Assembly (NCBI RefSeq): GCF_026210795.1
Contig: NC_089430.1
Location: 1,178,001-1,242,000 of the forward strand
Origin: Rhizophagus irregularis
Taxonomy: Eukaryota
Length of the DNA stretch: 64,000 nucleotides
Direction of reading: 5' to 3'
In this document: positions 1,270-45,613 of the stretch, piece after piece
Layout: every line of letters begins with the position of its first letter
Numbering within the stretch: position 1 is the first letter of the stretch
Program-made: the position numbers and the translations under genes
The notes under the pieces: generated by a model
Told to the model about the DNA's origin: nothing
Database searches by the model: none
The model's input: only the letters and a program-made list of their open reading frames with translations

Positions 1270-4200
1270 TGATGAATAAATATGAATTAGTTTTTTTATG
1301 CGAAAAATTATTATTAAAATGTTAGACAATCGAATATCCTTTTTTTGTTTGATTGAACGACGAAATTGATTAAGAAATCAATTGCACATTGTCAATCAAG
1401 ATTAATCAATTTTTGATTGATCATTCATCTGCAAGATTGATCAATTCATTAAGGATTATTTTTGAGTTAATTAAATACCTAATCCGCAGTCTTTAGTATC
1501 AGTTATTGCTTATCCCACAAATTTTAACAAAAAAAAATATAAATATAAATAACTAGTTGATTGAATGGTCACCCTTACATGACTCTTAATTTAACCCAAA
1601 TTATCAAGTAATTTTTGACTATTTAATAGAAGTTCAAAAATTATAAAACATAAATAAAATTTTAAAAAGTAATAATTTCATGTCACTATTACATGATTAG
1701 TTAAATATTTGATTGGATAATTTTGGTTATATGATTAATTATTATAATTTAATAGTAACTGAAATATTTTTTTCTTATAGACTCTTGTGCAATCATTTAA
1801 CTTTATCTTTTCTTTATTTTCTTCAATAATATACAATTGTTTTTTTAAATACAAATATATTATTTAACTGATTTAAAAAGTTTTACATGAACTTTGTTTT
1901 ATTGAAAAAAATTGAAAACATAAAAAACTCTATGTTAATATTATGCAATATAAAGCCAATCAAACTCATAGTTATTACATCACAGATCACAGTCCAAGCT
2001 TTTCTTAAAGTGTTACAGGATGGTTCATGATTGAATCATTTTGAAAAACACAAAAACTGTTGCATATAACTATAAAATTTTTCTTTAATTTTTATTATTA
2101 TTCAGATTATAATTAGTGATTGGTGATAATTAATATTTAAATATGTAGATTACAAATAAAATTACATTATATAATTTAAAAAATTATGGTAATAAAATAA
2201 GGTTTATTCTGTATGATCACCACTTTAGATGTAACTGATCATTTCTAAGTTGGTTTTTAACAAAAAAAAAAAGTGATATTCAAAATTATTCGAAGTATAT
2301 AACTAGATGAGGAATCTTATCCAAGTCCTGCTTCAATTGAATTAAACGATTTACCCATTAATATAATTATCGAAAATAATAATGAAATTAATGTTGAAAA
2401 TGAAATTGTTTGACTCAAACTTCTTTCAAATAATTTTTAACATAATGAACGTTTAAAATAGTTAATATACACTATAAATCTAAATTTAAGCTATTATTAT
2501 TGTATCATTCTTTATTTATGATAAATTAATCTAAGATATATATTTTTAATGTTAAAGAATAAAAAGTATTAATTATGTTATATGGATTCATGTACGTTCG
2601 TTTTAACATTTTAATTTAAAGTCATAATAAGGTCGGGAGTGTCGTATATTGGTGTGGGTTTAAATGTTTAACACGAAATAATAAATTTTTATCAAAAAAT
2701 TTCTTGAAGCGTAAAAAGTACAAAAAAGATTATTTATTACTGTATTACTTCAATTACTAGGACAAAATTAATTAATTACTCATTTAATTAATTACTCTAT
2801 TAATTAACTGGCTAAGCAATTCTTATTTATTTGTTTGCAACGTGTCATAAACTATAAAATATTTTTATATTTTATCTTGGTAAATTCAAATAAAGAATAT
2901 TTAAATTATTGATTAAAAATACTTAAAATACTTAAAAGTTTTTAATATTCGTATCTTTAAATATAGATTGGGTCTGGTTATCATTATACTACTTGTTATA
3001 GGCTCCAAAACAAACATGGCATGAATCACAGACCCACATTATTATTAAAAAGTGGCCTAGAAGAGAAATTTCTTACACATTTGACGTGAGTTAGTTGTAC
3101 AGTATTTACATTTCATGTCTCCAATTTATTATGTTATTCGTTTAAACAATGACATAAAAGTTTCGCATCAGCAAATTTTAACTTCCCTATTTGTGCTATA
3201 TAAATTTGGTACGGCTTATAGTCATAAAGGATACCTAATGTTAACTTATAATTTGAAAGTAAATTTCATCAATTAGAACAGATTCAAATTAACGTATACT
3301 TTCATAAGAACCCAATCTTAAGTTTGGCATTCAAGTTAAATAATAAAAATTTATTAAGTATAAATTAGTTAATGGGCAGACAGGCAGACATGAAATCTTG
3401 TTATTAGTAGCACGTATTTAGATTCCGCATTAACTCTTTATATAAAATACTTTTTCTAAGGGGTTCTCAAGCGACTCCTCAATGGGATAACATAGTGATA
3501 CTCAATCATTACGACCAATTTAAATAAAGATCACGATTATATTTTGAGCAAACACTCTTCGCTTACTTAATTATCATATTGTCCTTCAAAGAGTCGTAAT
3601 AAATAAAGAAAACTATGCAACAAGCAAAAGAAATATCTCCAGCGGTAATTCAAAATGCTCTCTTTGTAGATTACACAAACCTTCAAATGTTGATGAGTCT
3701 CCGACTGTGTAACAATAAATTAGGCAAGAATAATGCGAAAATGTGCCGGAGTTTATCTGTTAGGTATGGGAAGATTTCTATCCAGAATTCTGGTGATGTC
3801 TCTTTTTTCATATTTTCAAATTTTTGGACGAGATGGTTATGATCCATATGACTTACTTGGTTGCTTGTAGTGCTTGAATTATCCCATCAATGATAATTGA
3901 TAAATTTTAGCCAATCAGCGTAACCCTATGGAAAAAAGATGTTTTAGACCTCCAGTTTTATTTATCGGAATTGAAACTCATTTAATCTTTCATGACCGAT
4001 ATTCCTGTAATTAAATTGAAAAGAAACGACATACAGAAAAATTTTAAGATTATCCTTTACGGTAAATTTAGTTTGTTTAGTCTTCAAAATAAATTTTCGA
4101 AAATATTCAATCACGAGAATTTATATTATGGTGGAGAAAAATTTTGTTTACCGTAAAAAGAATAAGTTTTTCAGACGATTTTACTTTCCTGAATATATTT

Positions 4201-10117: not shown

Positions 10118-10126
10118 TATTTTTTT

Positions 10127-11145
10127 TTGATTTTTAGCTAACAAAAACGTCAAGTCTGACGTTCTTAGCTAATAAAAATCATTTTTCCTTGATTTTTAAT
10201 AACAAAAACGTCAAGTCTGACGTTTTTAGCTAATAAAAATCATTTTCCCTTGATTTTTAATAACAAAAACGTCAAGTCTGACGTTTTTAGCTAATAAAAA
10301 TAATTTTCCTTGATTTTAATAACAAAAACGTCAAGTCTGACGTTTTTAGCTTATAAAAATTATTTTCCTTGATTTTTAATAACAAAAACGTCAAGTCATA
10401 CGTTTTCAGCTAATAAAAATCATTTTTCCTTGATTTTTAATAACAAAAATGTCAAGTCTGACGTTTTTAGCTAATAAAAATCATTTTTCCTTGATTTTAA
10501 TAACAAAAACGTCAAGTCTGACGTTTTTAGCTAATAAAAATCATTTTTCCTCGATTTTTAATAACAAAAACGTCAAGTCTGACATTCTTAGCTAATAAAA
10601 ATCATTTTTCCTCGATTTTTAATAACAAAAACGTTAAGTCTGATGTTCTTAGCTAATAAAAATCAAATTTTCTTGATTTTTAATAACAAAAACGTTAAGT
10701 CTGACGTTCTTAGCTAATAAAAATCATTTTCCTTGATTTTTAATAACAAAAACGTCAAGTCTGACGTTTTTAGCTAATAAAAGTCATTTTCCTTGATTTT
10801 TAATAACAAAAACGTCAAGTCTGACGTTTTTAGCTAATAAAAATTGATTTTAATTACAAAATCATCAGACTTTTGATTAAAAAAAATCATTTTTTTTTTG
10901 ATTTTTTAATCACAAAAACGTCAAGTCTGACGTTTTTGATTAAAAAAATCATTTTTTTTGATTTTTTTTGTATTTTTTTTTGATTTTTTAATCACAGAAA
11001 CGTCAGGTTGATTAAAAAAATCAATTATTTTTGATTTTTCAATCACAAAAATGTTAAGTCTGACGTTTTGATTAAAAAAAAATCAATTTTTTTTTGATTT
11101 TTCAATTACAAAAACGTCAAATTTTTGACGTTTTTGATTAAAAAA
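10127..11145. repeat. Tandem repeat with a unit of about 60 bp (about 12 clean copies to about 10850, then degenerate)
   Basis: Unit TAATAACAAAAACGTCAAGTCTGACGTTTTTAGCTAATAAAAATCATTTTTCCTTGATTTT, with an internal inverted repeat AAAAACGTCA-AGTC-TGACGTTTTT. Confidence 0.93.
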
Positions 11146-11604: not shown

Positions 11605-14600
11605 ATGGCTCTTAGTAATGATAAAGGTAATAATCATATATATAATATAAACATTTAATACAATTAGAATTCTAATATTTCAAACAAATTTTTAATGTAA
11701 TAAAACTAGTTTCTGGTAATATTGAATTATTTGAAAGAAGTAGTACTAAAGAATTTGGAGGAAATGACTCTAAGGAATTCAAAGAAAGTGGCTTTAAAGA
11801 ATTTGAAAAAAGTACTACCAAGGAATTTAAAGGTATATTAAATATGCTAAAATATTAAATTTTTATTTGTAAATACATTTAAATGCTATCTATAATAATA
11901 CCTTATATAATATACAAATATAGCTCGTAAGTTAATAGGTTATCTTATAATCGAATAATAATGGAATTACTTATCATTTTTATTACATTCCATGTAATTA
12001 AATAATTCATTTAATGATTAAAATACTATAGTCAGTAAGTTATTAGTTATTTAAACTTTTAATTCTTTATTTTGTTTATTTTACATAATATTCAATAACT
12101 AAATTCTTTTTTTAATTAACTATTTAATAATTAATTGTATTACAGACGGTAAGTTACAATATCATATTTATTTGTTTAATATTTTATTATAATTCAACTA
12201 ATTATATTTTTAATTAAACAACTAGATTGTAAGTGATATATTTAATTTACAGTAAATACTTTATATTATATTTATTTTTAACTAATAATTAATTAATAAT
12301 ACTAGGGTTTAAGTTATAGATTTTTATATTTCTATTATTTATATAATTTAAACTAACTAAATTCTTTATTTATATAGATCGTAAGTTATAAGTTATTTAT
12401 TCAATTCTATTATTACTTGTTGTTATAATATTTACATATAATTTAAACTAACTAAATTCTTTATTTAAAAAATTATTTTATAGGGAGTAAGTTATTTATT
12501 TAATTCTGCCTATTATTACTTATTGTTATAATATTTACATATAACTTAAACTAACTAAATTTTTTATTTAAAAAATTATTTTAATAATATAGGGAGTAAG
12601 ATATTTATTTGTTTCTATTAATACTTCTTCCTTATAAAAAATAAATGTCCGGAAAAGATGATATAAAATTTTAGGTTAAAGCAATTATAATGATGATCAC
12701 TTGTTGATCATCTTTTTGTAACAAATTTTATGAAAAAATATTTCAGGTCAATTTCCAGACAAATTCCGGACAAAAATGAATGTCCAGAAATGAGCGTGTT
12801 TTGGATCAATTTCTGTCCAGAAAATGTCTAGAAAATGTCCAGGTACTTTTAGACAAATTTTCCAGACAATTTCTGGACAATTTCCGGACACTTATTATTT
12901 ATAGGGCCTGTTATAATATTTACATATAATTTAAACTAACTAAATTATTTATTTAATAGATAGTAAGTTATAAGTTATTTATTTAATTCCGTTATTACTT
13001 ATTGATATGACATTTACATATAATTTAAAACTAAATTCTTTATTTAAAAATTATTTAATAATTTAGAGAGTAAGTTATTTATTTAATTCTATTGTCACTT
13101 ATTGTTATAATATTTGCATATAATTTAAACTAACTAATTTCTTTATTTAAAAAATTATTTAATAATTTAGAGAGTAAGTTATTTAATTAATTCTATTATT
13201 ACTTATTATTATAATATTTGCATTAATTGCATATAATTTAAACTATTAAACTAATTTCTTGTTTAAAAATTTATTTAATAATATAGGGAGTAAGTTATTT
13301 TTTTAATTACATTATTACTTATTGTTATAATGTTTGCATATAATTTAAACTAACTAAATTCTTTGTTTAAAAATTTATTTAATAATATAGGGAGTAAGTT
13401 ATTTATTTAGTTCTATTATTATTTATTGTTATAATATTTTCATATAATTTAAACTAACTAAATTATTTGTTTAAAAATTATTTAATAATACAGGGAGTAA
13501 GTTATTTATTTATTTCTATCACTTATCATTATAATATTTGCATATAATTTAAACTAATTAAATTCTTTACTTAAAAAATTATTTATTAATATAGGAAGTA
13601 TTTATTTATTTAATTCTATTATTATTTATTGTCATAATATTTGCATATAATTTAAACTAACTAAATAAAAAATATTTAATAATATAGGGAGTAAGTTATT
13701 TAATTAATTCTATAATTACTTATTATTATAATATTTGCATATAATTAAACTAACTAAATTCTTTGTTTAAAAATTTATTTAATAATATAGGGAGTAAGTT
13801 ATTTATTTAGTTCTATTATTATTTATTGTTATAATATTTTCATATAATTTAAACTAACTAAATTATTTGTTTAAAAATTATTTAATAATATAGGGAGTAA
13901 GTTATTTATTTATTTCTATCGCTTATCGTTATAATATTTGCATATAATTTAAACTAATTAAATTCTTTACTTAAAAAATTATTTAATAATATAGGAAGTA
14001 TTTATTTGTTTAATTCTATTGTTACTTATTGCTATAATATTTATATATAATTTAAATTAACTGAATTCTTTAATTAAATAGATCGTAAGTTATAAGTTAT
14101 TTATTTAATTCTGTTATTATTTATTGTTATAATATTTGCATATAATTAAACTAACTAAAGTTTTTATTTAAAAAATTATTCAATAATATTGAGAGTAAGT
14201 TATTTATTTAATTCTATATTATTGTTATAATATTTTCATATAATTTAAACTAACTAAATTCTTAAAAAAATATTTTGTAATATAGGGAGTAATTATTTGT
14301 TTAATCTATTATTACTTATTGTTATAATATTTATACTAACTTTTTACTTATAAAAATTATTTAATAATATAGCTTGTAAGTGATTTGTTGTTACTATTGT
14401 TTATTTATTTTATAAATATTTATTTGTTAATTGAATTCTATTCATATAAATTTCCGTTAATTTAGTTAGTAAGTTGTGAATTATAAGTTATTATTATTTA
14501 CATTTATACAAAAACTAAGACATAAGACATATATTATATTTAAATTTCTATTTAAATTTTAGAGTAAGTGTTGATTTTAATCTTAAATTTTAGTGTAATT

Positions 14601-16006
14601 TTTAATATAAACTTCAATAATAATTTTAATTGCTTAAATCTATATAGATATGGAAAAAGTGGAAATGCAATTATGGATAATTTTATTTCGGAAAAAAATT
14701 TAAAATGGATTCCTTATGATAAATTTGAAAATATTGAATATCTTGATAAAGGAGGATTTGGTACTATATACAAAGCTAATTGGTTTTATAATAATGAAGA
14801 TAATAAAGTAATTCTTAAATGTCATAATAATTTAAGTGAAAATTTGAATGAATTTTTAAATGAAGTATGATAATATTTTATTTATTTTTTTAATTTGAAT
14901 CATAATTAATTTGTACTAATATATTATCAACTTTTTTATAGTGGGAATATCACGTAAGTTGTTTAGATTCAAATGATATTATTTATTTTTATGGGTTTAC
15001 AAAAGATCCAGATACTTTGAAATATATGGCAGTAATGGATTATGCAAACAAGGGTAATTTAAGAGGAAACTTAACAATAATAATCAAAAGTGGTTGGAAT
15101 AAAAAATTATATATGTTATTTGGAATTATTTCTGGACTTAATGGTATACATAGACAAAATCTTATTCATTGTGATTTTCATGATGGCAATATTTTAAATC
15201 ATAATGAAAGAAAAGTTTATATTAGTGATTTAGGATTATGTAAATCTATAAGATCATTTTTGAAAAAATATGATATTTATGGTGTTATACCATTTATGGC
15301 ACCAGAAGTTTTAAGAGGCAATTCTTATACTCCAGCTAGTGATATATATAGTTTTTCTATGATTATGTGGGAATTTACATCTGGGGTACCACCATTTAAT
15401 AATAGAGCACATGATTTTCAACTTAGTTTAAGTATTTGTGAAGGTGAACGTCCTGAAATTATTGAAAATGCTCCACAATGTTATGTAGATTTGATGAAAA
15501 AGTGTTGGGATGAAACCCCATTAAAAAGGCCATCTTCTGAAGAAGTGTTAAATATTATTAGTGATTGGATTTTTCTTCCATCTAATGTGAAAGTTGAAGA
15601 TATTAATGAAGAATTAAAATGCAATATTATGGAATTTATAAATGCACCAATTGAGCATAACAATAATCTTGCTACTGAGTCTCATCCACAAGCATATTAT
15701 ACAAGTCGCTTACTTGATTTTACTAGTAAACAGTTGAATGAAACTCTTAAAAATAGAGATTTGCAAGCTTATTATTCAAGTCAATCTACTAGTGGAAAAG
15801 TGAATGAAGAAAGTGAAGATTCACAAGCTAGTGTAAAATTAAATGAAATGCTAGTAAATAAAGATTTAGATGATTGTATAGTTAATTTGAAGTCATTAGG
15901 TATGTAATATAGTACATAAAAAGAAATAATTTTGCAAATTATTTCAGTTATGTGAAATTAATTTTATTTATTTAATTATTTAGATATTAAAACAGATAAA
16001 AAATAA
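11605..16006 (+). CDS. TKL-like protein kinase with a micro-exon-encoded N-terminus (exons 11605-11626, 11710-11832, 22 x 3 nt, 1 nt at 14563, 14648-14864, 14942-15899, 15984-16006)
   Basis: The kinase exons are clear (WIPY, GGFG, VILK, HCDFHDGN, DLG, APE, DIYSFS, GERP, CW..P..RP). The 5' model rests on AG/GT sites and on phase consistency from ATG 11605 to the 14648 exon. Confidence is about 0.95 for the kinase part and lower for the 5' model. Confidence 0.82.
11920..14570 (+). repeat. Tandem intron/micro-exon array (unit of about 80-115 bp: ..CTAAC..TAG|NNN|GTAAGT..)
   Basis: 25 YAG-N(1 or 3)-GTA modules, two of them with a broken site. The units from about 12350 to 14340 are highly similar and most carry an ACTAAC branch-like motif. 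Confidence 0.85.
12630..12906. mobile_element. CCC-ended MITE (CMC/CACTA-like) inside a micro-exon intron
   Basis: TIRs CCTTATAAAAAATAAATGTCCGGAA / CCCTATAAATAATAAGTGTCCGGAA, imperfect 3-bp TSD CTT/CCT, internal TGTCCAGAAA repeats. It interrupts the intron consensus. Confidence 0.75.
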
Positions 16007-37292: not shown

Positions 37293-38005
37293 TGTTACCA
37301 CCGATTTGTGTAGTTCGGGAGGGCAGTAACAGAAATATATACGGGTTAATTTATAGAATTTGACTAACAATAGGCAGTAATCGGCAATAAATCGTGAGGA
37401 AATGGGTAGGGTTTATCAACAATTAGCAATAGATTTATAAACAATGTATATTTATTGAATGTATAACAATCGGAAATAAAATTGACAATAAAAACAATAA
37501 CGAAATGTATAAAATTGGAGTGATCGGCGGGTTCTTTATTAACAATTACAAAAGAATTTCCTAATATTACTGCCTCTGCCGGCGCTCTGTAATATTCCCA
37601 AGGTTCTATCTAAGTGTTAATAATCGAAAAATCACTTCCCCGAAACCTCAGCGGAATTTCTTCCCTTAAATATTATTCAAAATTTGGGACGATTAGTGCT
37701 TTGGCCAACTCGCCCGTTATTCAAATCGTCCAAAGTACAACTCGTTTTCCGGTCAAATCGTCCATTGTACGAATCACCCATCACAGCCATAATTGATTCC
37801 CACCAAGCCATACGCCACATTTCCTATAAACTATATATATAAATTGTATAAATAAACTATATAAATAAAATAAACTATACTATATAAATAAACTATATCA
37901 AATAAAAATAAAATAAACTAAATATAAATAAATAAATAAATAAATAAAATATACTATAAAAAAATAAATCATATAAGAATAACTATATAAAAAATTCCCG
38001 TGACA
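37293..38005 (-). repeat. 3' LTR (713 bp)
   Basis: Direct repeat of 44901-45613; only two mismatches were seen by eye. Confidence 0.97.
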
Positions 38006-38014
38006 TTACCCCCT
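38006..38014 (-). other. Polypurine tract
   Basis: Minus strand AGGGGGTAA immediately before the TG of the 3' LTR. Confidence 0.65.
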
Positions 38015-38041
38015 GAAGAAGGGTGAGCCCCTGCGAACCTT

Positions 38042-38659
38042 TTACAAGGTTTCGCGCATTATTCGTCGAGCTTCCGGTAATAATTCGTCATAAAAGTCTC
38101 CTTCACTCATTTTAGTTAAACGCGTCGGGCAAATGTAGGCGACTTTAGTCAGACATTGGACTCCTCTTATCGCGAAGAGTTCGTAAACTCTCCGAGAAGT
38201 TTTCTTAACATCTTTAGCGAATCGTTGTCCAACTTGTTCTTGAAGGATTCCATAGTCCTTCTTCGTCCATCCTCGAAGAGACAAGAGCTCGCCTAAATAA
38301 TAATAGACCTCTAATCTTTCGTGAACGCTTTTCTGTCGGAAGGTGGTCTGTCGTATCATTCGGGTTAATTTCCTCAATAGTTCATCTTCGTTCCCTCCAA
38401 GATAATTCGGTCTTTGATACTCGTAATTTGTCAGGTGATGAAGGTCTATCTTACAACGATGCACGATTTCGCTTTGTTCATCGTAGTCTAGAATCGTCTT
38501 AAAATCAATAGAAACGATTCTTTCGGCATCAGAAAGCAACAAATTCGTTGGGGTGATGTGAAACTCTTCATACTCCCCTTTTTCCTCTAACCACAATTGT
38601 AAGAGAGCCTTCAGTTGTCCTTTGAACTTTTCGGAGAAGGTTTCCATGATAACTGTCAT
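38042..38659 (-). CDS. Extra ORF (205 aa) in the env position of the retroelement; unknown, apparently soluble and helical
   Basis: Intact ATG-initiated ORF between the integrase and the PPT, with element-like composition. No obvious signal peptide or TM segment. Confidence 0.75.
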   Translation of the reverse strand: MTVIMETFSEKFKGQLKALLQLWLEEKGEYEEFHITPTNLLLSDAERIVSIDFKTILDYDEQSEIVHRCKIDLHHLTNYEYQRPNYLGGNEDELLRKLTRMIRQTTFRQKSVHERLEVYYYLGELLSLRGWTKKDYGILQEQVGQRFAKDVKKTSRRVYELFAIRGVQCLTKVAYICPTRLTKMSEGDFYDELLPEARRIMRETL

Positions 38660-38721
38660 TTTTCGTCCTTTGAAGAGTCACGGCTATTTAAATGTCTTTT
38701 GGCTGGTCTCTTCTCACGCTA

Positions 38722-39981
38722 TTAATTAGTAATCGTTCTTTCATAATATGAGCGAATCTGGTCTGCGTGGACAACTTTTTTCCGAAGTTTTCCCTCTAAG
38801 GTCCTTAACTTGTAAGTTCCGTTTGGTCTCACATCATGAATGTAATAAGGGCCATGCCACTTTGAGTCAAGTTTCTTGGCTCTAAAGTTGCGTAATAGGA
38901 CCTTTTCACCAATTTGGTACCGGTGTTCCTTAATTTGTTTGTTATGTCGTTCTACTTGCCGTTTTTGCGCATGTTGAATATTCTCATTTGCTTGCTGTCG
39001 ATCATCAATCAAGTTTCCGGCTAGCTGACCTAATCGTCGGAAATATAAATCTTCAAAGCCTCGATCGGATCTATCCTCAAAAGGATAAGTTGGAACTTCC
39101 AGTTCGATCGGCAATACTGCGTCTCGCCCATAGGTGAGGTAAAAAGGTTCATAACGGGTAATGTTTTGACGCATGGTTCGATAGGCAAACAAAGCCGAAG
39201 GGATGAATAAATCCCAATCATCTTTTCTTTCTATACAATATTTCGCTAAAAGTTCACAAAGGGTCCGATTAAACCTTTCTACGAGACCATTCGTCTGTGG
39301 ATGATAGGCAACAGACAATCGGTGCGTTATACCAAGGCGTTTACACAACGAATCGAGCATCTCGTTAACGAAGTGTGTCCCTTGGTCGGTTAACAATTCC
39401 TTGGGGCACCCGTGGCGGCAAACAATATCTTCGTAGAAAAACGAGACTACCGAAGTAGCCTTTGCGTCCGGAAGAGCACGTGCTTCTGGCCACTTTGTCA
39501 GATATTCGGTGGCTACTACAATATACTGATTGCCTTTCTTGGTCAATGGTAGGGGTCCCACGATGTCCATCCCAATCCGGTCGAAAGGTTGACCCACTTT
39601 AATAGGGTGAAGAGGTTCGGTTTTGATCGGCCGCTTCCTTCTTTGACAAGTATCACATGCTTGTACATAAGCTTTGATGTCGTCGCCCATCTGGGGCCAA
39701 AAATACTTTTCCTTTATTGCGCGAAAAGTTTCATTGAATCCAAAATGTCCAGCGAGTGGATCATCATGGAAGCCACGCAATATTATTTCCATTTCATTCT
39801 TTTTGATCACTCGCATCGGTCGTTGAGGATTTCTTATATTTCGTCGGTATAATATGCCATTCTTTATTATATAACTGCGGGCTTTATTCTTAAAATTCCT
39901 TAATTGAGTAGTATCGAAGTCTGCAGGTAGCGTTAAGTCATCCAAGTATCGTATCAATCGGTAGTATGTATCCGTATCCAT
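38722..39981 (-). CDS. Stand-alone retrotransposon integrase (419 aa)
   Basis: HHCC zinc finger (HDDPLAGH..CDTC), DDE core (MDIVGP, LTDQG, LVERFN) and GPY module. No chromodomain is evident. Confidence 0.93.
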   Translation of the reverse strand: MDTDTYYRLIRYLDDLTLPADFDTTQLRNFKNKARSYIIKNGILYRRNIRNPQRPMRVIKKNEMEIILRGFHDDPLAGHFGFNETFRAIKEKYFWPQMGDDIKAYVQACDTCQRRKRPIKTEPLHPIKVGQPFDRIGMDIVGPLPLTKKGNQYIVVATEYLTKWPEARALPDAKATSVVSFFYEDIVCRHGCPKELLTDQGTHFVNEMLDSLCKRLGITHRLSVAYHPQTNGLVERFNRTLCELLAKYCIERKDDWDLFIPSALFAYRTMRQNITRYEPFYLTYGRDAVLPIELEVPTYPFEDRSDRGFEDLYFRRLGQLAGNLIDDRQQANENIQHAQKRQVERHNKQIKEHRYQIGEKVLLRNFRAKKLDSKWHGPYYIHDVRPNGTYKLRTLEGKLRKKVVHADQIRSYYERTITN

Positions 39982-40070
39982 GGCTGGGTTAAATCAATAG
40001 GGTAATCCGAAAATCAAAATCAAAAAATGCGTGTGTCCCGGGTATTGTTTGGAAAAAGATTTTACTTCTA

Positions 40071-43000
40071 TCAGATGCGCGATAAGCTATCTACGTTAGA
40101 GTGTCTTTTTCTGGCGTGATGAATAGTATCAAAATCGTACGATTGTAGTTTCATGACCCAACGGGCCAATCTTCCGTTTGGAGTCGTCATATTAAATAGA
40201 TGACAAAGCGCAGAGTGGTCAGTAATAAGCGAAAAGTGGCTTCCGTGCAGATAATAATGAAATTTTCCAATGGCCCAAACAGCGGCCAAACATTCCAGTT
40301 CAGTAGCAGTGTAGTTCTTTTCAGCGGGTAGTAAGGAGCGACTAGCATACGCAACAACCCGTTCGTTACCGTCTTCATCCTTTTGCGATAACACAGCTCC
40401 CAAGGCAAACGTAGACGCGTCGGTAAACAGAATAAAAGGTCGGTTCCATTGAGGATACGTAAGAATGGGAGAAGAAATGAGACAGTTCTTCAAATATTCA
40501 AACGCCTGTTGTTGCGCATTGGTCCAATTAAACGGGACGTTCTTTTTCAATAGTTTATTTAGCGGATTGGCGATTTTTGAAAAATCTTTAATAAATCGTC
40601 GGTAGTACGAGGCTAATCCTAAAAATCCGCGTAATTGCGTCAAGTTCGTTGGTCGCGGGAAGTCCTTGACTTTACTAATTTTTCCAGGATCAGTACGGAT
40701 TCCATCCTTGCTGATAACATGTCCAAGGAAAGCTAATTCGGTAGAAGCAAACTTGCACTTTTCGGGATTTAATTTAAGCCCTGCATCCCTCAACCGGTCG
40801 AATATTTTTCGTAAATGCTGGAGGTGTTCGTCAAACGTTCGGGAATAGATATTCAAATCGTCCAAATATACAACGACGAATTTCCATAGTTCATCAGCGA
40901 AGCACCTCATCCATCAGACGTTGGAAAGTAGCGGGTGCGTTACATAGCCCAAACGGCATTACAGTAAATTGGAAAGTGCCGAACTGGGTAATGAAGGCGG
41001 TCTTTTCCCTATCCTTAGGGTTCATTTCTACCTGCCAATAACCGCTGGCCAGGTCCAACGAGGTAAACCAGGCGGATCCTCCAAGCGAATCCAACATGTC
41101 ATCGATGCGTGGTAAAGGATATTCGTCCCGTTTGGTCACTTTGTTTAACGGACGATAGTCAACACAAAATCGAAGCTTTCCATTCTTCTTACGAACCAAA
41201 ACTACCAGAAAAGCCCAGGGTCCTCGCGACTTTTCAATCAAATTTTGTTGCAACATTCGGTCAATTTCACCAGCGATAAATCTCTTTCCATTCTTGAGGT
41301 TCGATACCATCGTTTTTTAATGGGAGTAGCGTTTCCGACGTCAATCGTATGTTGCACAAGATCAGTCCGACCTAACTGAGTTGCATCCCACGCAAACAAA
41401 TGTTGGTACTGTTGCAGAAGGTCTACAAGGTTCGTTTTCTGTTCCTTCGTCAAATCTCCCATTGGTAACTCAAATAATTTGGCGTCCCATTCTTGAGTGA
41501 GTTCGGCATGTCCGAAGTGTAAAGGGACCTCGTTCTGGCGTTTCCATTCGTCAGGATCTTTCTTTTTGCAATAGAAACAGAGTTGTCGATCATGTTCATT
41601 AGCGACGTCAACTACTTCTTCTAACTGTACTTCGCTCGGCATTGCATCTTGTACTAAATTGTCAGGATCCAGATTTCGGTTCTCGAAATCGGAACTGATT
41701 TCTGCGACGATTCTTGGCGATAACCGTTGTACAGTAATGTAGTTAGTTAATTCTTCATAACATCGGGAGCAGGAATCGCTTGGTGAAACTAATCGGTCAC
41801 CACACCAACATCGGGCGGTAGGCCCTTTCCAGTCATATGTCCAGGTCGCTCGTTTGGGTGGCTTTCTTTGAAACTGTTCATTTAGTCGAGCGAAATAGGT
41901 CCATAGATAGAAAGACTTGTCTAAATAGACTCCTCCTTTGGTTAATACAAAATTTTCCTTGGGGTAAATTCCGTTGATTACAACTTCTTGAAATCGGCAG
42001 GTCAATTGGAGCGAAAAATTCTGTTCGATGCGCGGGGAAGGCCTTTGTTTTACTTTAAAATGACAGAATACTTTTTCGTCAAGGTCTTCTTCCTCGTATT
42101 CTTCCTCTGTCTCCTCTTCTTCTTCGCTCATATCTTCCTCCTCTTCTTCTCCTTTTCGATTTGTCTCCTCTTGTTTCCTCCGTCTTTCCATTGGTATTTC
42201 TAAATATTCGATCGGAACTTCAATGTCTTTTCCTTCCCAGTGGATGAGCATGTTGGCAGTTTCATAATCAATATTAGCTTTTACTTTCGATAACCAATCG
42301 TTTCCAACAATCGCACTATAGGTCATAGCGTCGGTGACCACCACATCAACTGGGATGGTCACTCCTTTAATAGTAATGGGAAAGTTAAGTACTTCTCCTA
42401 AAGGCCGTTTTCGTTCTCCGTTAACGTTAATCATCAAAGTGGTCGAAGGCCGATCGATAGCTATTCCAAGGTCATTTAATAGTCGGCATGAAACAATGCT
42501 TCCAGCTGCCCCGCTATCGAGAATCAAAGGGATCTCTTGTCCTTTTACTTTAGCGTCACAATATAAGGCCGTCGCATTCGGATTATCTTGATCGGAAAAT
42601 TGGGCAGCTAACTTAGTTGTTCGGGTACCCGGTTTTCGTATACTCTTTCCGACGTCACTTCGTAATTTAGGCGAAATCTGGAACAACTGTCTGAACGAAA
42701 TATTCGCTCGTTGCTGTTGCAAATCGGCAACAATATTATACGGTTGAATGTGGGCTGCAATAGATGGTTGAGGTTTTTGTAGTGGCCTCTTTCGGGCTAC
42801 CATTTTTTTCTTCAGTCGGATTGGAGTAGGTTGAACTGTGGAGATGGTAGGTTGGACTATTCTTTGTACATTCCCTTGCACAGATTCGGTACTCCCTGTT
42901 GGTCGAATTTCTTCCATTCTTACGGTCGGTTCAACAGCAACATCAGTCGTAATAGGGGGATCTTCTTTCTCTTCTTTGGTCTTTGCATAAGGATGACTCC

Positions 43001-43112
43001 TCGTGACCGGTCGATTTCTTTCAGCAGGATACGCTTCGAACAACGTACAAAATGAGGGGTTTTGTTCCGGTTTCGCACCCTTACCCTCAAAGGATGCACC
43101 TTCTAGTTTAAA
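40071..43112 (-). CDS. pol: pol (protease-spacer-RT-RNase H), reached by -1 frameshift; two internal 1-nt indels (about 41279 and 40896)
   Basis: Protease ILDSGA. RT motifs RFCVDYR, LDLASGYWQ, MPFGL, YLDD. RNase H motifs FTDAS, TELE, ITDH, NVDSLSR, followed by TGA TAG. Confidence 0.93.
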
Positions 43113-44860
43113 GACTGACTGGTAGCTCCGAGCTGATTTTGCGCTGCTAACTGTTGTATTAAAGTCTGAAGTGTATTTGGATCTATGGCCGCTTTATCGT
43201 TAATGGTATTTGTTCCTCTATTCGGACATCGTCGACTGATATGTCCGGGCTGTCCGCAAGCATAGCAAGTAACCGAAGGGTTGCCAGGAATTACATTTCG
43301 GTTATTTACATTATCTCGAGGATTAGGATCGTTATTTCGTGGAGGTCGATATCGATTGGGTTGTGTTTCGACCTTCCTGGTCAATTCACCAACTTGCGTA
43401 ACGAGGGTGGAGACAATCTTTGCTAACTCGGTCGTTTCTGATTGGACGGTAGTTGCATAATTACTCGGCTTCTTCTTTCCTTCCCTCAAAGTGAGTTCAC
43501 ATGCACGAGCTCTATCGATAGCTGCCTGTAATGTCTGATCAGCAAAAGGCTTAACGGCTACATATAGTTCGGGTAGCAATCCGGAGATAAATTTCCGCGC
43601 TTGAATATTGTCCGGGTAAGCAAACGCTCCATCATTAATTCGTTGGTATAGTTCCTGTACTGAGGACGCATATTGATCCACAGATTCTCCGGGTTGCTGC
43701 TGTCGTTGATCGAGTTCTGTTGACCATAATTCGACTAAAGCGGGCGTTCGAAACCTTTGTTTAAAAACATGTTCGAACGTATTATTATTGGCAGCACCGT
43801 CCCAGGCGTTGATAGGATTCCCAACTACCGTCTGATACCATACGGCGGCAGCTCCTTTTAAATACGCTGGAACGACTTGGAGTTTACGAACGTTATTCCA
43901 TCCATTGGCCGCGCAAGCTAAATTAAATTCGTTTAACCAGGCGATTGGGTCTTGATTTCCTCCGTAGAAGGTCGGAACTTGTGCAGCTTGTGTTCCTCGG
44001 TTATGCATCGCATTATTATTGGCGGTAAGAGTAGCGTTTAATGCGTTTACGGCATTATTAACATTCGCCCAATTGTTTCCTCCAGCGCCAAGAGCGTTCG
44101 TTAAATTATTTAGGGCGTTCAACAAGATATTAGGATTGAATCCTCCACCAAGGGCGGCCATTCCGGGTACTTCTGGTTCTTCGAATAGCTGGTTGAGATG
44201 TAAGTCTTCGTCAGCGAATAATAGCCCAACTGGTTCCGGCTCAGGGAATAATCGGTTTAAGTTTAAATCTTCGTCAAGAAATAATAATCCTACTGGTTCT
44301 TCCCTGAAAAGACTTTCGATGTGTAAGTATTCGTCAGTAAATAATAGTCCTGGGGTCGCCGGTCCCTGGTTTAATAATCCGTGAAGTAAGGGATGAAAAT
44401 TGTTGGGGATATCAAAACTTCCGGTGGAACTATCGGAGTCGGTTGATGCGTTTGCTTCGCTAATTTGGTATAATTCTTCAAAGGGATCCTTTCGAAAAGT
44501 ATCGGTAAGGATATACGCGTTATATAACTCTTGTCGTAATTGAGTGTAGGGTCGAGGCTCAATAGAATACCGGATACTAAAAACAATCGAGTAAATGGCT
44601 TCCCAAGTTTCTACAACAGTTAGGGAGGCGTCAAGGTTTATCAGAGCCTGTTGGGTATTTCGTGTGTATTCGATAGCTGGATTCTCAACGGAATACCAGT
44701 TCCAGAAATGGTCAAATTGTAATGTATTGGGTAGAGGCGGATGGCAACGGATACACGATGGGTCGCGATGATAAAAGGTAACTTGATCTATTCGGTTATA
44801 AAGGCGATGCCAACGGTTATGTATTCGGTTCTGCGTAAATAATATCTCGTAATCGACCAT
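43103..44860 (-). CDS. gag: Gag (585 aa) with an atypical 233-aa N-terminal extension
   Basis: Capsid-like motifs (PTFYG..DPIAWL, YLKGAAAVWY, QQPGESVDQY, FISGL) and a CCHC knuckle CYACGQPGHISRRC. Confidence 0.92.
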   Translation of the reverse strand: MVDYEILFTQNRIHNRWHRLYNRIDQVTFYHRDPSCIRCHPPLPNTLQFDHFWNWYSVENPAIEYTRNTQQALINLDASLTVVETWEAIYSIVFSIRYSIEPRPYTQLRQELYNAYILTDTFRKDPFEELYQISEANASTDSDSSTGSFDIPNNFHPLLHGLLNQGPATPGLLFTDEYLHIESLFREEPVGLLFLDEDLNLNRLFPEPEPVGLLFADEDLHLNQLFEEPEVPGMAALGGGFNPNILLNALNNLTNALGAGGNNWANVNNAVNALNATLTANNNAMHNRGTQAAQVPTFYGGNQDPIAWLNEFNLACAANGWNNVRKLQVVPAYLKGAAAVWYQTVVGNPINAWDGAANNNTFEHVFKQRFRTPALVELWSTELDQRQQQPGESVDQYASSVQELYQRINDGAFAYPDNIQARKFISGLLPELYVAVKPFADQTLQAAIDRARACELTLREGKKKPSNYATTVQSETTELAKIVSTLVTQVGELTRKVETQPNRYRPPRNNDPNPRDNVNNRNVIPGNPSVTCYACGQPGHISRRCPNRGTNTINDKAAIDPNTLQTLIQQLAAQNQLGATSQSLN

Positions 44861-44876
44861 ACAAAATAGTAAGGGC

Positions 44877-44897
44877 CGATCCTTATAAGGAGCACCA
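44877..44897 (-). other. Primer binding site
   Basis: TGGTGCTCCTTATAAGGATCG begins 3 nt after the 5' LTR. Its complement CGATC-CTTAT-AAGGAGC-A-CCA has the geometry of a tRNA 3' end. Confidence 0.85.
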
Positions 44898-44900
44898 AGT

Positions 44901-45613
44901 TGTTACCACCGATTTGTGTAGTTCGGGAGGGCAGTAACAGAAATATATACGGGTTAATTTATAGAATTTGACTAACAATAGGCAGTAATCGGCAATAAAT
45001 CGTGAGGAAATGGGTAGGGTTTATCAACAATTAGCAATAGATTTATAAACAATGTATATTTATTGAATGTATAACAATCGGAAATAAAATTGACAATAAA
45101 AACAATAACGAAATGTATAAAATTGGAGTGATCGGCGGGTTCTTTATTAACAATTACAAAAGAATTTCCTAATATTACTGCCTCTGCCGGCGCTCTGTAA
45201 TATTCCCAAGGTTCTATCTAAGTGTTAATAATCGAAAAATCACTTCCCCGAAACCTCAGCGGAATTTCTTCCCTTAAATATTATTCAAAATTTGGGACGA
45301 TTAGTGCTTTGGCCAACTCGCCCGTTATTCAAATCGTCCAAAGTACAACTCGTTTTCCGGTCAAATTGTCCATTGTACGAATCGCCCATCACAGCCATAA
45401 TTGATTCCCACCAAGCCATACGCCACATTTCCTATAAACTATATATATAAATTGTATAAATAAACTATATAAATAAAATAAACTATACTATATAAATAAA
45501 CTATATCAAATAAAAATAAAATAAACTAAATATAAATAAATAAATAAATAAATAAAATATACTATAAAAAAATAAATCATATAAGAATAACTATATAAAA
45601 AATTCCCGTGACA
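44901..45613 (-). repeat. 5' LTR (713 bp)
   Basis: Direct repeat of 37293-38005. Confidence 0.97.

Follow-up and report, generated by a model that had tools for sequence, protein, structure and literature searches.

In Fusarium, the CYP621A P450 genes harbour a single-nucleotide exon that joins a phase-1 donor to a phase-2 acceptor (PMC12940212). In Arabidopsis, the single-nucleotide exon of APC11 is constitutive and was tested by mutation in protoplasts (PMC4674806), while a long-read annotation of the mushroom Coprinopsis cinerea comprises 13 one-base exons in 13 genes (PMC12230235). As for exons of three bases, the NACHT-ankyrin genes (nank) of Tuber melanosporum contain tens of them, and protein diversification by alternative splicing was proposed as their role (PMC4986451, PMC13449251 and PMC10197012, on Iotti et al., 2012). 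In Schistosoma, micro-exon genes (MEGs) are described as having short symmetric exons in series, the smallest of 3 nt.

The locus considered here lies in a 64,000-nt stretch of the Rhizophagus irregularis genome (NC_089430.1, positions 1,178,001 to 1,242,000), hereafter the window, in which a predicted array of 3-nt exons is followed by a one-base exon, the A at position 14563, and then by a kinase domain. With CYP621A, it has in common a fungal host, a bridge from phase 1 to phase 2 and a single nucleotide serving as middle base of a codon, as well as retention across relatives, public RNA reads (here those of paralogues) and omission from annotation. The CYP621A exon has an ordinary exon on either side and belongs to a conserved enzyme motif in orthologues that are single-copy, whereas the Rhizophagus one comes after a 3-nt array in a large paralogous kinase family, where the residue, Lys or Glu, is set by the preceding exon. 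With APC11, the likeness is a single A between AG and GT that the frame needs, a stepwise removal being proposed for APC11; the latter has no micro-exon array and was mutation-tested, whereas the Rhizophagus exon is known from sequence and RNA reads. Coprinopsis likewise illustrates the use of 1-3-nt exons by fungi, but its one-base exons are scattered catalogue cases, for which the available part of that source describes neither an array nor a family-wide adaptor role (PMC12230235).

The nank genes resemble this locus by their many tandem 3-nt exons, by belonging to an expanded gene family and by occurring in a mycorrhizal fungus; they are, however, immune-receptor genes of an ascomycete, whereas the present ones are kinases of Glomeromycota with predicted array exons, and the window gene exhibits kinase domains only, not the NACHT-ankyrin combination. 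MEGs encode small secreted proteins and have long introns, unlike the tandem introns of about 100 nt and the putative cytoplasmic-type kinase domain found here. All in all, the site shares with the APC11/CYP621A type of exon the AG and GT borders with ordinary introns, the need of the frame, conservation and family RNA, and the gene belongs with the expanded Rhizophagus kinases (PF07714/PF00069) by its kinase domain and its close Rhizophagus paralogues. An earlier note on this DNA considered 1-nt exons as very rarely reported, which is roughly right but dated given the 13 of a single mushroom (PMC12230235). A literature search, outside which most subscription papers and supplements lay, found nothing on micro-exons in Rhizophagus kinases, nor, with most subscription papers again outside it, on one- or three-base exons in the arbuscular mycorrhizal lineage. 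One-base exons are thus already known; what is new is the setting, in which a frame adaptor concludes a run of codon-sized phase-1 exons in a family of Rhizophagus kinases.

Gene model

Inspection of the sequence confirmed the one-base site reported by the earlier note, TTTTAG-A-GTAAGT with the A at 14563, between introns of 94 nt and 84 nt that are both of the GT..AG type. The gene model around it reads as follows:

11605..11626, + strand: exon 1 (coding part), 22 nt, ending in phase 1; similar N-termini in the public relatives P0006, P0007, P0018 and P0246
11710..11832, + strand: exon 2, 123 nt, phase 1 to phase 1, with acidic Glu/Ser/Lys-rich repeats of 24-nt tandem period; same frame in the relatives
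11924..14468, + strand: array of 22 predicted 3-nt exons, all in phase 1, with introns of about 80-110 nt
14373..14375, + strand: second-last 3-nt exon, CTT; the same triplet is present in the RNA consensus and in X1 contigs of paralogues
14466..14468, + strand: last 3-nt exon, TTA here and TTG in most paralogues, including loci L002 and L003
14469..14562, + strand: intron upstream of the A, 94 nt, GTAAGT..TTTTAG; its 3' part retained in four part-spliced paralogue reads
14563..14563, + strand: likely one-base exon A, middle base of codon N-A-A, from sequence, phase, conservation and paralogue RNA
14564..14647, + strand: intron downstream of the A, 84 nt, GTAAGT..TATAG; 2+2 paralogue reads link its donor to the kinase exon
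14648..14864, + strand: first kinase exon, starting in phase 2 with YGKSGN... of the glycine-rich loop
14942..15899, + strand: main kinase exon, 3' end approximate; PF07714 (E 5e-32) and PF00069 (E 4e-30)

The phase arithmetic of the earlier note holds, as both exon 1 and exon 2 end in phase 1, the 3-nt exons keep this phase and the kinase exon begins in phase 2. Joining all 22 accepted 3-nt units and the A leaves 1389 nt free of stops, whereas a stop arises at codon 89 when the A is left out. The junction codon of the window copy is then A-A-A (Lys), assembled from three exons, and it becomes Glu in the paralogues with TTG. In the array, which is mostly built on a 103-nt tandem unit, 19 of the 22 exons are followed by a GTAAG donor, the three weaker ones being at 13595, 13995 and 14286. 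Paralogue reads continue from 14864 into the main kinase exon.

The DNA of the window is AT-rich and eukaryotic, and neither prokaryote genomes nor viral contigs gave a match when scanned. Relatives of the kinase domain amount to 775 proteins at E <= 1e-60, and the named proteins among the best 120 of these are all from Rhizophagus and up to 90% identical; a search with the exon-2 peptide found no longer relatives. Elsewhere in the window, a 61-nt tandem repeat in twelve copies lies at 10119-10844, about 760 nt upstream of exon 1, and identical direct repeats 7608 nt apart enclose a GC-richer interior at about 37293-45600, an element that looks like a recent LTR retroelement.

Chance level and routes to an open frame

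In the 64 kb, YAG-N-GTAAGT has a single occurrence where 0.52 would be expected, and 40 of 100 shuffled sequences also reach one; taken alone, the one-base motif is not above chance and proves nothing. Its 3-nt version, by contrast with the 0.51 expected, is found 18 times, all in the array, a count reached in none of 100 shuffles. Isolated AG-(1-4 nt)-GTAAG sites outside the array, at about 55531, 55415, 32644 and 32530 on the - strand and about 59045 on the + strand, may be due to chance or be ordinary exon ends.

The phase match, which the earlier note took as independent support for the whole array, does exist but weighs less than was thought, since several other routes restore the frame. 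On paper, the frame can also be opened by a one-base T at 14594, by 7-nt extensions of a 3-nt exon or by phase-1 acceptors at 14568, 14751 and 14754. The claim that one extra nucleotide is needed and that it yields a Lys codon therefore stands in that the model is open with the A and closed without it, yet on paper the A is not the sole route. With a motif at chance level and a phase match that is not unique, the argument needed evidence from outside the window, and conservation together with RNA does lift the one-base exon above chance.

Conservation across kinase loci

With a profile of the first kinase exon, 49 metagenome loci were fetched. Five of them (L001-L005) are of the same subfamily as the window gene, matching from the first residue of the kinase exon with 62-69% identity. 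The conservation of AG-N-GT in paralogues, suggested as a check by the earlier note, is borne out in all five, which have TTTAG-A-GTAAGT 72-96 nt above a phase-2 kinase exon, as the window likewise has AG-A-GTAAGT. In the alignment of the window with these loci, the 12-mer TTTAGAGTAAGT is invariant (6/6), so that donor and acceptor of the one-base exon are invariant consensus sites in all six, while the introns around it are 55-94% alike (mean 0.69) and the next-longest invariant run is 4 nt.

A sister subfamily of 14 loci (L006-L008, L010, L011, L013, L014, L016, L017, L020, L023, L024, L029 and L031) has arrays of 3-nt exons too, but its kinase exon starts in phase 1; the last micro-exon is of 3 nt in 14/14 and of one base in 0/14. 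The phase was called by script in 13 of these loci and by eye in L011, for which the homologous TAG (phase 1) was preferred to a later AAG (phase 0) picked by the script. L023 and L024 are near-duplicates, and the count omits 30 of the 49 loci, which have no array, are cut short or start inside the kinase. In other words, the one-base exon is the last array unit only where the frame needs it, that is in the phase-2 and not in the phase-1 subfamily. Judged from these alignments, the contrast of six versus 14 is consistent with the prediction for a frame adaptor, yet it comes from two clades and is close to a single evolutionary event.

Evidence from RNA

Raw poly(A) RNA runs under the same species label were mapped over 14385-14870, where 848 reads of X21 and 933 of X22 were placed. 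Reads at least 99% alike to the window copy number 2/848 and 0/933, respectively; almost all reads thus come from paralogues, from which the splicing of the A in the window copy is to be inferred. Before 14651, the loose ends of 156 and 149 reads in the two runs give the consensus ...CTT TTG A ATT, where ATT is the start of the kinase exon in paralogues, and eight contigs of X2 end as CTT TTG A ATT too. Over 30 letters, the agreement with the consensus is 0.60 and 0.63 for the reads and 0.69 for the X2 contigs, and the mixed loose ends may stem from different paralogues.

The contigs of X1, which cover introns, show the paralogue genomic exons CTT and TTG, each followed by a donor, and a loose end at 14401; at 14468, A is replaced by G at a depth of 194.5 out of 215.2. 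At the one-base site, the X1 pile-up reaches a depth of 2094-3005 (14538-14571) versus 128-217 in the five preceding bins. Because the genomic exons are CTT and TTG, the extra A of the RNA must come from a separate exon, and the paralogue RNA reads CTT-TTG-A-kinase. Skipping of the A predicts TTG ATT and an extension by GTAA predicts GTAA ATT, neither of which is the consensus. Translated in the frame of the kinase, this consensus is open, as ..D-D-G-D-A-F-E-F-G. As to the comparison of included and skipped cDNA called for by the earlier note, the included form is, for the paralogues, the consensus in all three runs with a loose end listed at this place (X21, X22 and X2).

Besides, two reads in each of the two RNA runs join 14563 to the kinase exon while retaining the upstream intron. 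Below the listing threshold of 3 per run, these four joint reads show the use of the 14563 donor in paralogues and suggest that the downstream intron can go first, though their source could be a copy devoid of the intron. One X1 contig jumps from 14563 to 14658, with undetermined letters between.

Taken together, the A at 14563 is a one-base exon spliced by the paralogues and likely a fixed frame adaptor in the window copy too. The exon is real at the family level and presumably used in the window copy.

Alternative explanations

Among the competing readings, the one that fares best accepts that the family uses the exon but takes the window copy as silent or decaying, or its kinase as made from a downstream start, so that the site would never be used here. 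It would agree with the scarcity of near-identical reads (at most two among some 22 million records), with the damage to array units near 12304 and 14192 and with the 277-nt insertion into one of the introns. It would also agree with the in-frame ATG that follows within the kinase exon, a start used by many public models. It is nonetheless unlikely, as the 22 accepted units and the A join over 1389 nt without a stop and both splice sites of the one-base exon are intact; the RNA runs, moreover, may be from another strain or condition.

Less probable still is the on/off switch proposed by the earlier note, in which the exon is real but regulated and its skipping turns off kinase translation. Leaving out the A does bring the stop at codon 89, partial skipping is frequent among very small exons, with 33% of transcripts lacking an artificial 1-nt exon in work cited by PMC4674806, and a minority skipped form would be possible in an RNA output made of consensus only. 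Inclusion is, however, the consensus in X21, X22 and X2, the strong donor and acceptor do not vary among the six copies, the exon ends the array only where the frame requires it, and the published one-base exon of APC11 is constitutive (PMC4674806). The skipped form was not seen in the paralogue RNA consensus of the three runs, an output that gives no count of skipped reads, and the switch is left unsupported.

A frame mended by a longer exon running into the donor, either AGTAA as a 5-nt exon, the array then being read in phase 0, or a 3-nt exon lengthened by GTAA, exists on paper and could claim the S-K that precedes the motif in 12 of 65 public proteins with an FGKSGN-type motif, or the A-R-K, A-C-K and S-C-K of P0246, P0253 and P0261, after an exon-2-like stretch or similar, but it is highly improbable since GTAA would be expected before the kinase exon instead of the TTGA found in the RNA consensus, the joint reads depart from 14563 rather than 14567, and the second GT is in a weak context (GTGTTG, GTTGTG).

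Other routes were rejected. The rival one-base site is the following:

14594..14594, + strand: TTTTAG-T-GTAATT, restoring the frame on paper, rejected

As a bridging exon, this T is of 1 nt in L001, of 2 nt in L004 and absent from L002, L003 and L005, and it is missing from the RNA consensus. The acceptor at 14568 was rejected because it is the AAG inside the donor, those at 14751 and 14754 because the kinase N-lobe would be cut, and a 4-nt exon TTGA because the paralogue DNA has TTG and then the donor. The case that the earlier note had set against its own model, that is a frame mended by another acceptor or donor, thus disagrees with the paralogue RNA.

As for the public gene models, the N-termini of the fetched relatives are erratic. 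Residues of the S-K or A-R-K type would fit exons that a predictor extended into the donor GTAA, as a detour round the missing base. The junction F-[EK]-[FY]-G was found in 0/240 public proteins, the junction residues of the RNA consensus in 0/381 of those fetched, and a wider pattern, over the same number of 381, retrieved six proteins with L-E-F/Y-G, those inspected being preceded by intron-like sequence. The public gene models appear to misread this kinase family.

The predicted array of three-base exons

The array being in phase 1, its codons are split between exons, the first base lying in one and the other two in the following one. The linker so spelled is predicted to be Arg-rich in the window copy, and it is Asp-rich in the RNA of expressed paralogues; with the mapping from 14385, the RNA match concerns the last two 3-nt exons only, and in paralogues only. 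Between adjacent 3-nt exons, phase-1 stops occur at 2 of 117 junctions versus 6.1 in shuffles (P = 0.02, the loci not being independent), and 4 of 253 exon pairings of the window copy give a stop. The exon before the A is constrained, since a T-ending one joined directly to it gives TAA (e.g. 14373-14375 or 12226-12228 with 14563).

Phase-1 arrays of 3-nt exons precede two kinase subfamilies (window 11924-14468 and the 14 sister loci, with up to 29 units in the latter), and as a finding they probably outweigh the one-base exon. A one-base CAG-A-GTAAGT unit lies in mid-array in L007, at about 1258, and a two-base TAG-GG-GTAAGT unit in L023, at about 299, both shifting the frame if included; these are either broken units or further adaptors. 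Stops appear in L005 and L020 when all array units are joined. In the window, a damaged unit at about 14190-14200 (TTG-AGA-GTAAGT) has lost its acceptor, leaving a cryptic one-base site GAG-A-GT, another at about 12302-12315 (TAG-GGT-TTAAGT) has lost its donor, and a MITE-like element of 277 nt with 26-nt terminal inverted repeats is inserted in one array intron at 12630-12906.

Proposed mechanism and origin

In the fixed frame adaptor favoured here, the array would end in phase 1, the kinase exon would start in phase 2 and the single A would supply the missing base, as the middle of codon N-A-A. The two introns beside it are probably removed one after the other, downstream first, an order drawn from the few reads (four) that lack the downstream intron and keep the upstream one; once the downstream intron is gone, the A would be the first base of the kinase exon and the AG before it an ordinary acceptor. 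Stepwise removal around a micro-exon, with the second intron first, has a discussed precedent (PMC4674806). Protein variation would likely arise from the upstream 3-nt exons rather than from the one-base exon.

Regarding its origin, an array unit probably shrank from AG-AGA-GT to AG-A-GT, and such a reduction is illustrated by L007, where a one-base A in mid-array stands beside a sister unit that has AGA. Against the adaptor reading, arrays do decay, and a site of the AG-A-GT kind may therefore be a broken unit instead. Alternatively, it is possible that an intron was gained one base into an ancestral phase-1 kinase exon, because 10 of the 14 sister kinase exons begin with A.

Concluding remarks

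The Rhizophagus kinases show the smallest possible exon used across a family, with support from RNA. A one-base exon beside 3-nt exons is an extreme test of the spliceosome, as the sites are too close for simultaneous binding, and the part-spliced reads make the order of intron removal testable. Besides, the one-base exon would explain the erratic or absent N-termini in the public models of these kinases. Re-annotation is likely needed for many copies and would bring to light a variable linker in a family that ranks among the most expanded ones of these symbionts. More tentatively, and with considerable doubt, a large hidden family of kinases in arbuscular mycorrhizal fungi could build this N-terminal linker by mixing and matching dozens of phase-1 3-nt exons, with the one-base exon as a fixed gate. 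If so, each skipped 3-nt exon would rewrite a neighbouring codon, and the exon before the A would set Lys, Glu, Gln or a stop (T-A-A), so that a single cassette would provide peptide diversity as well as an off state.
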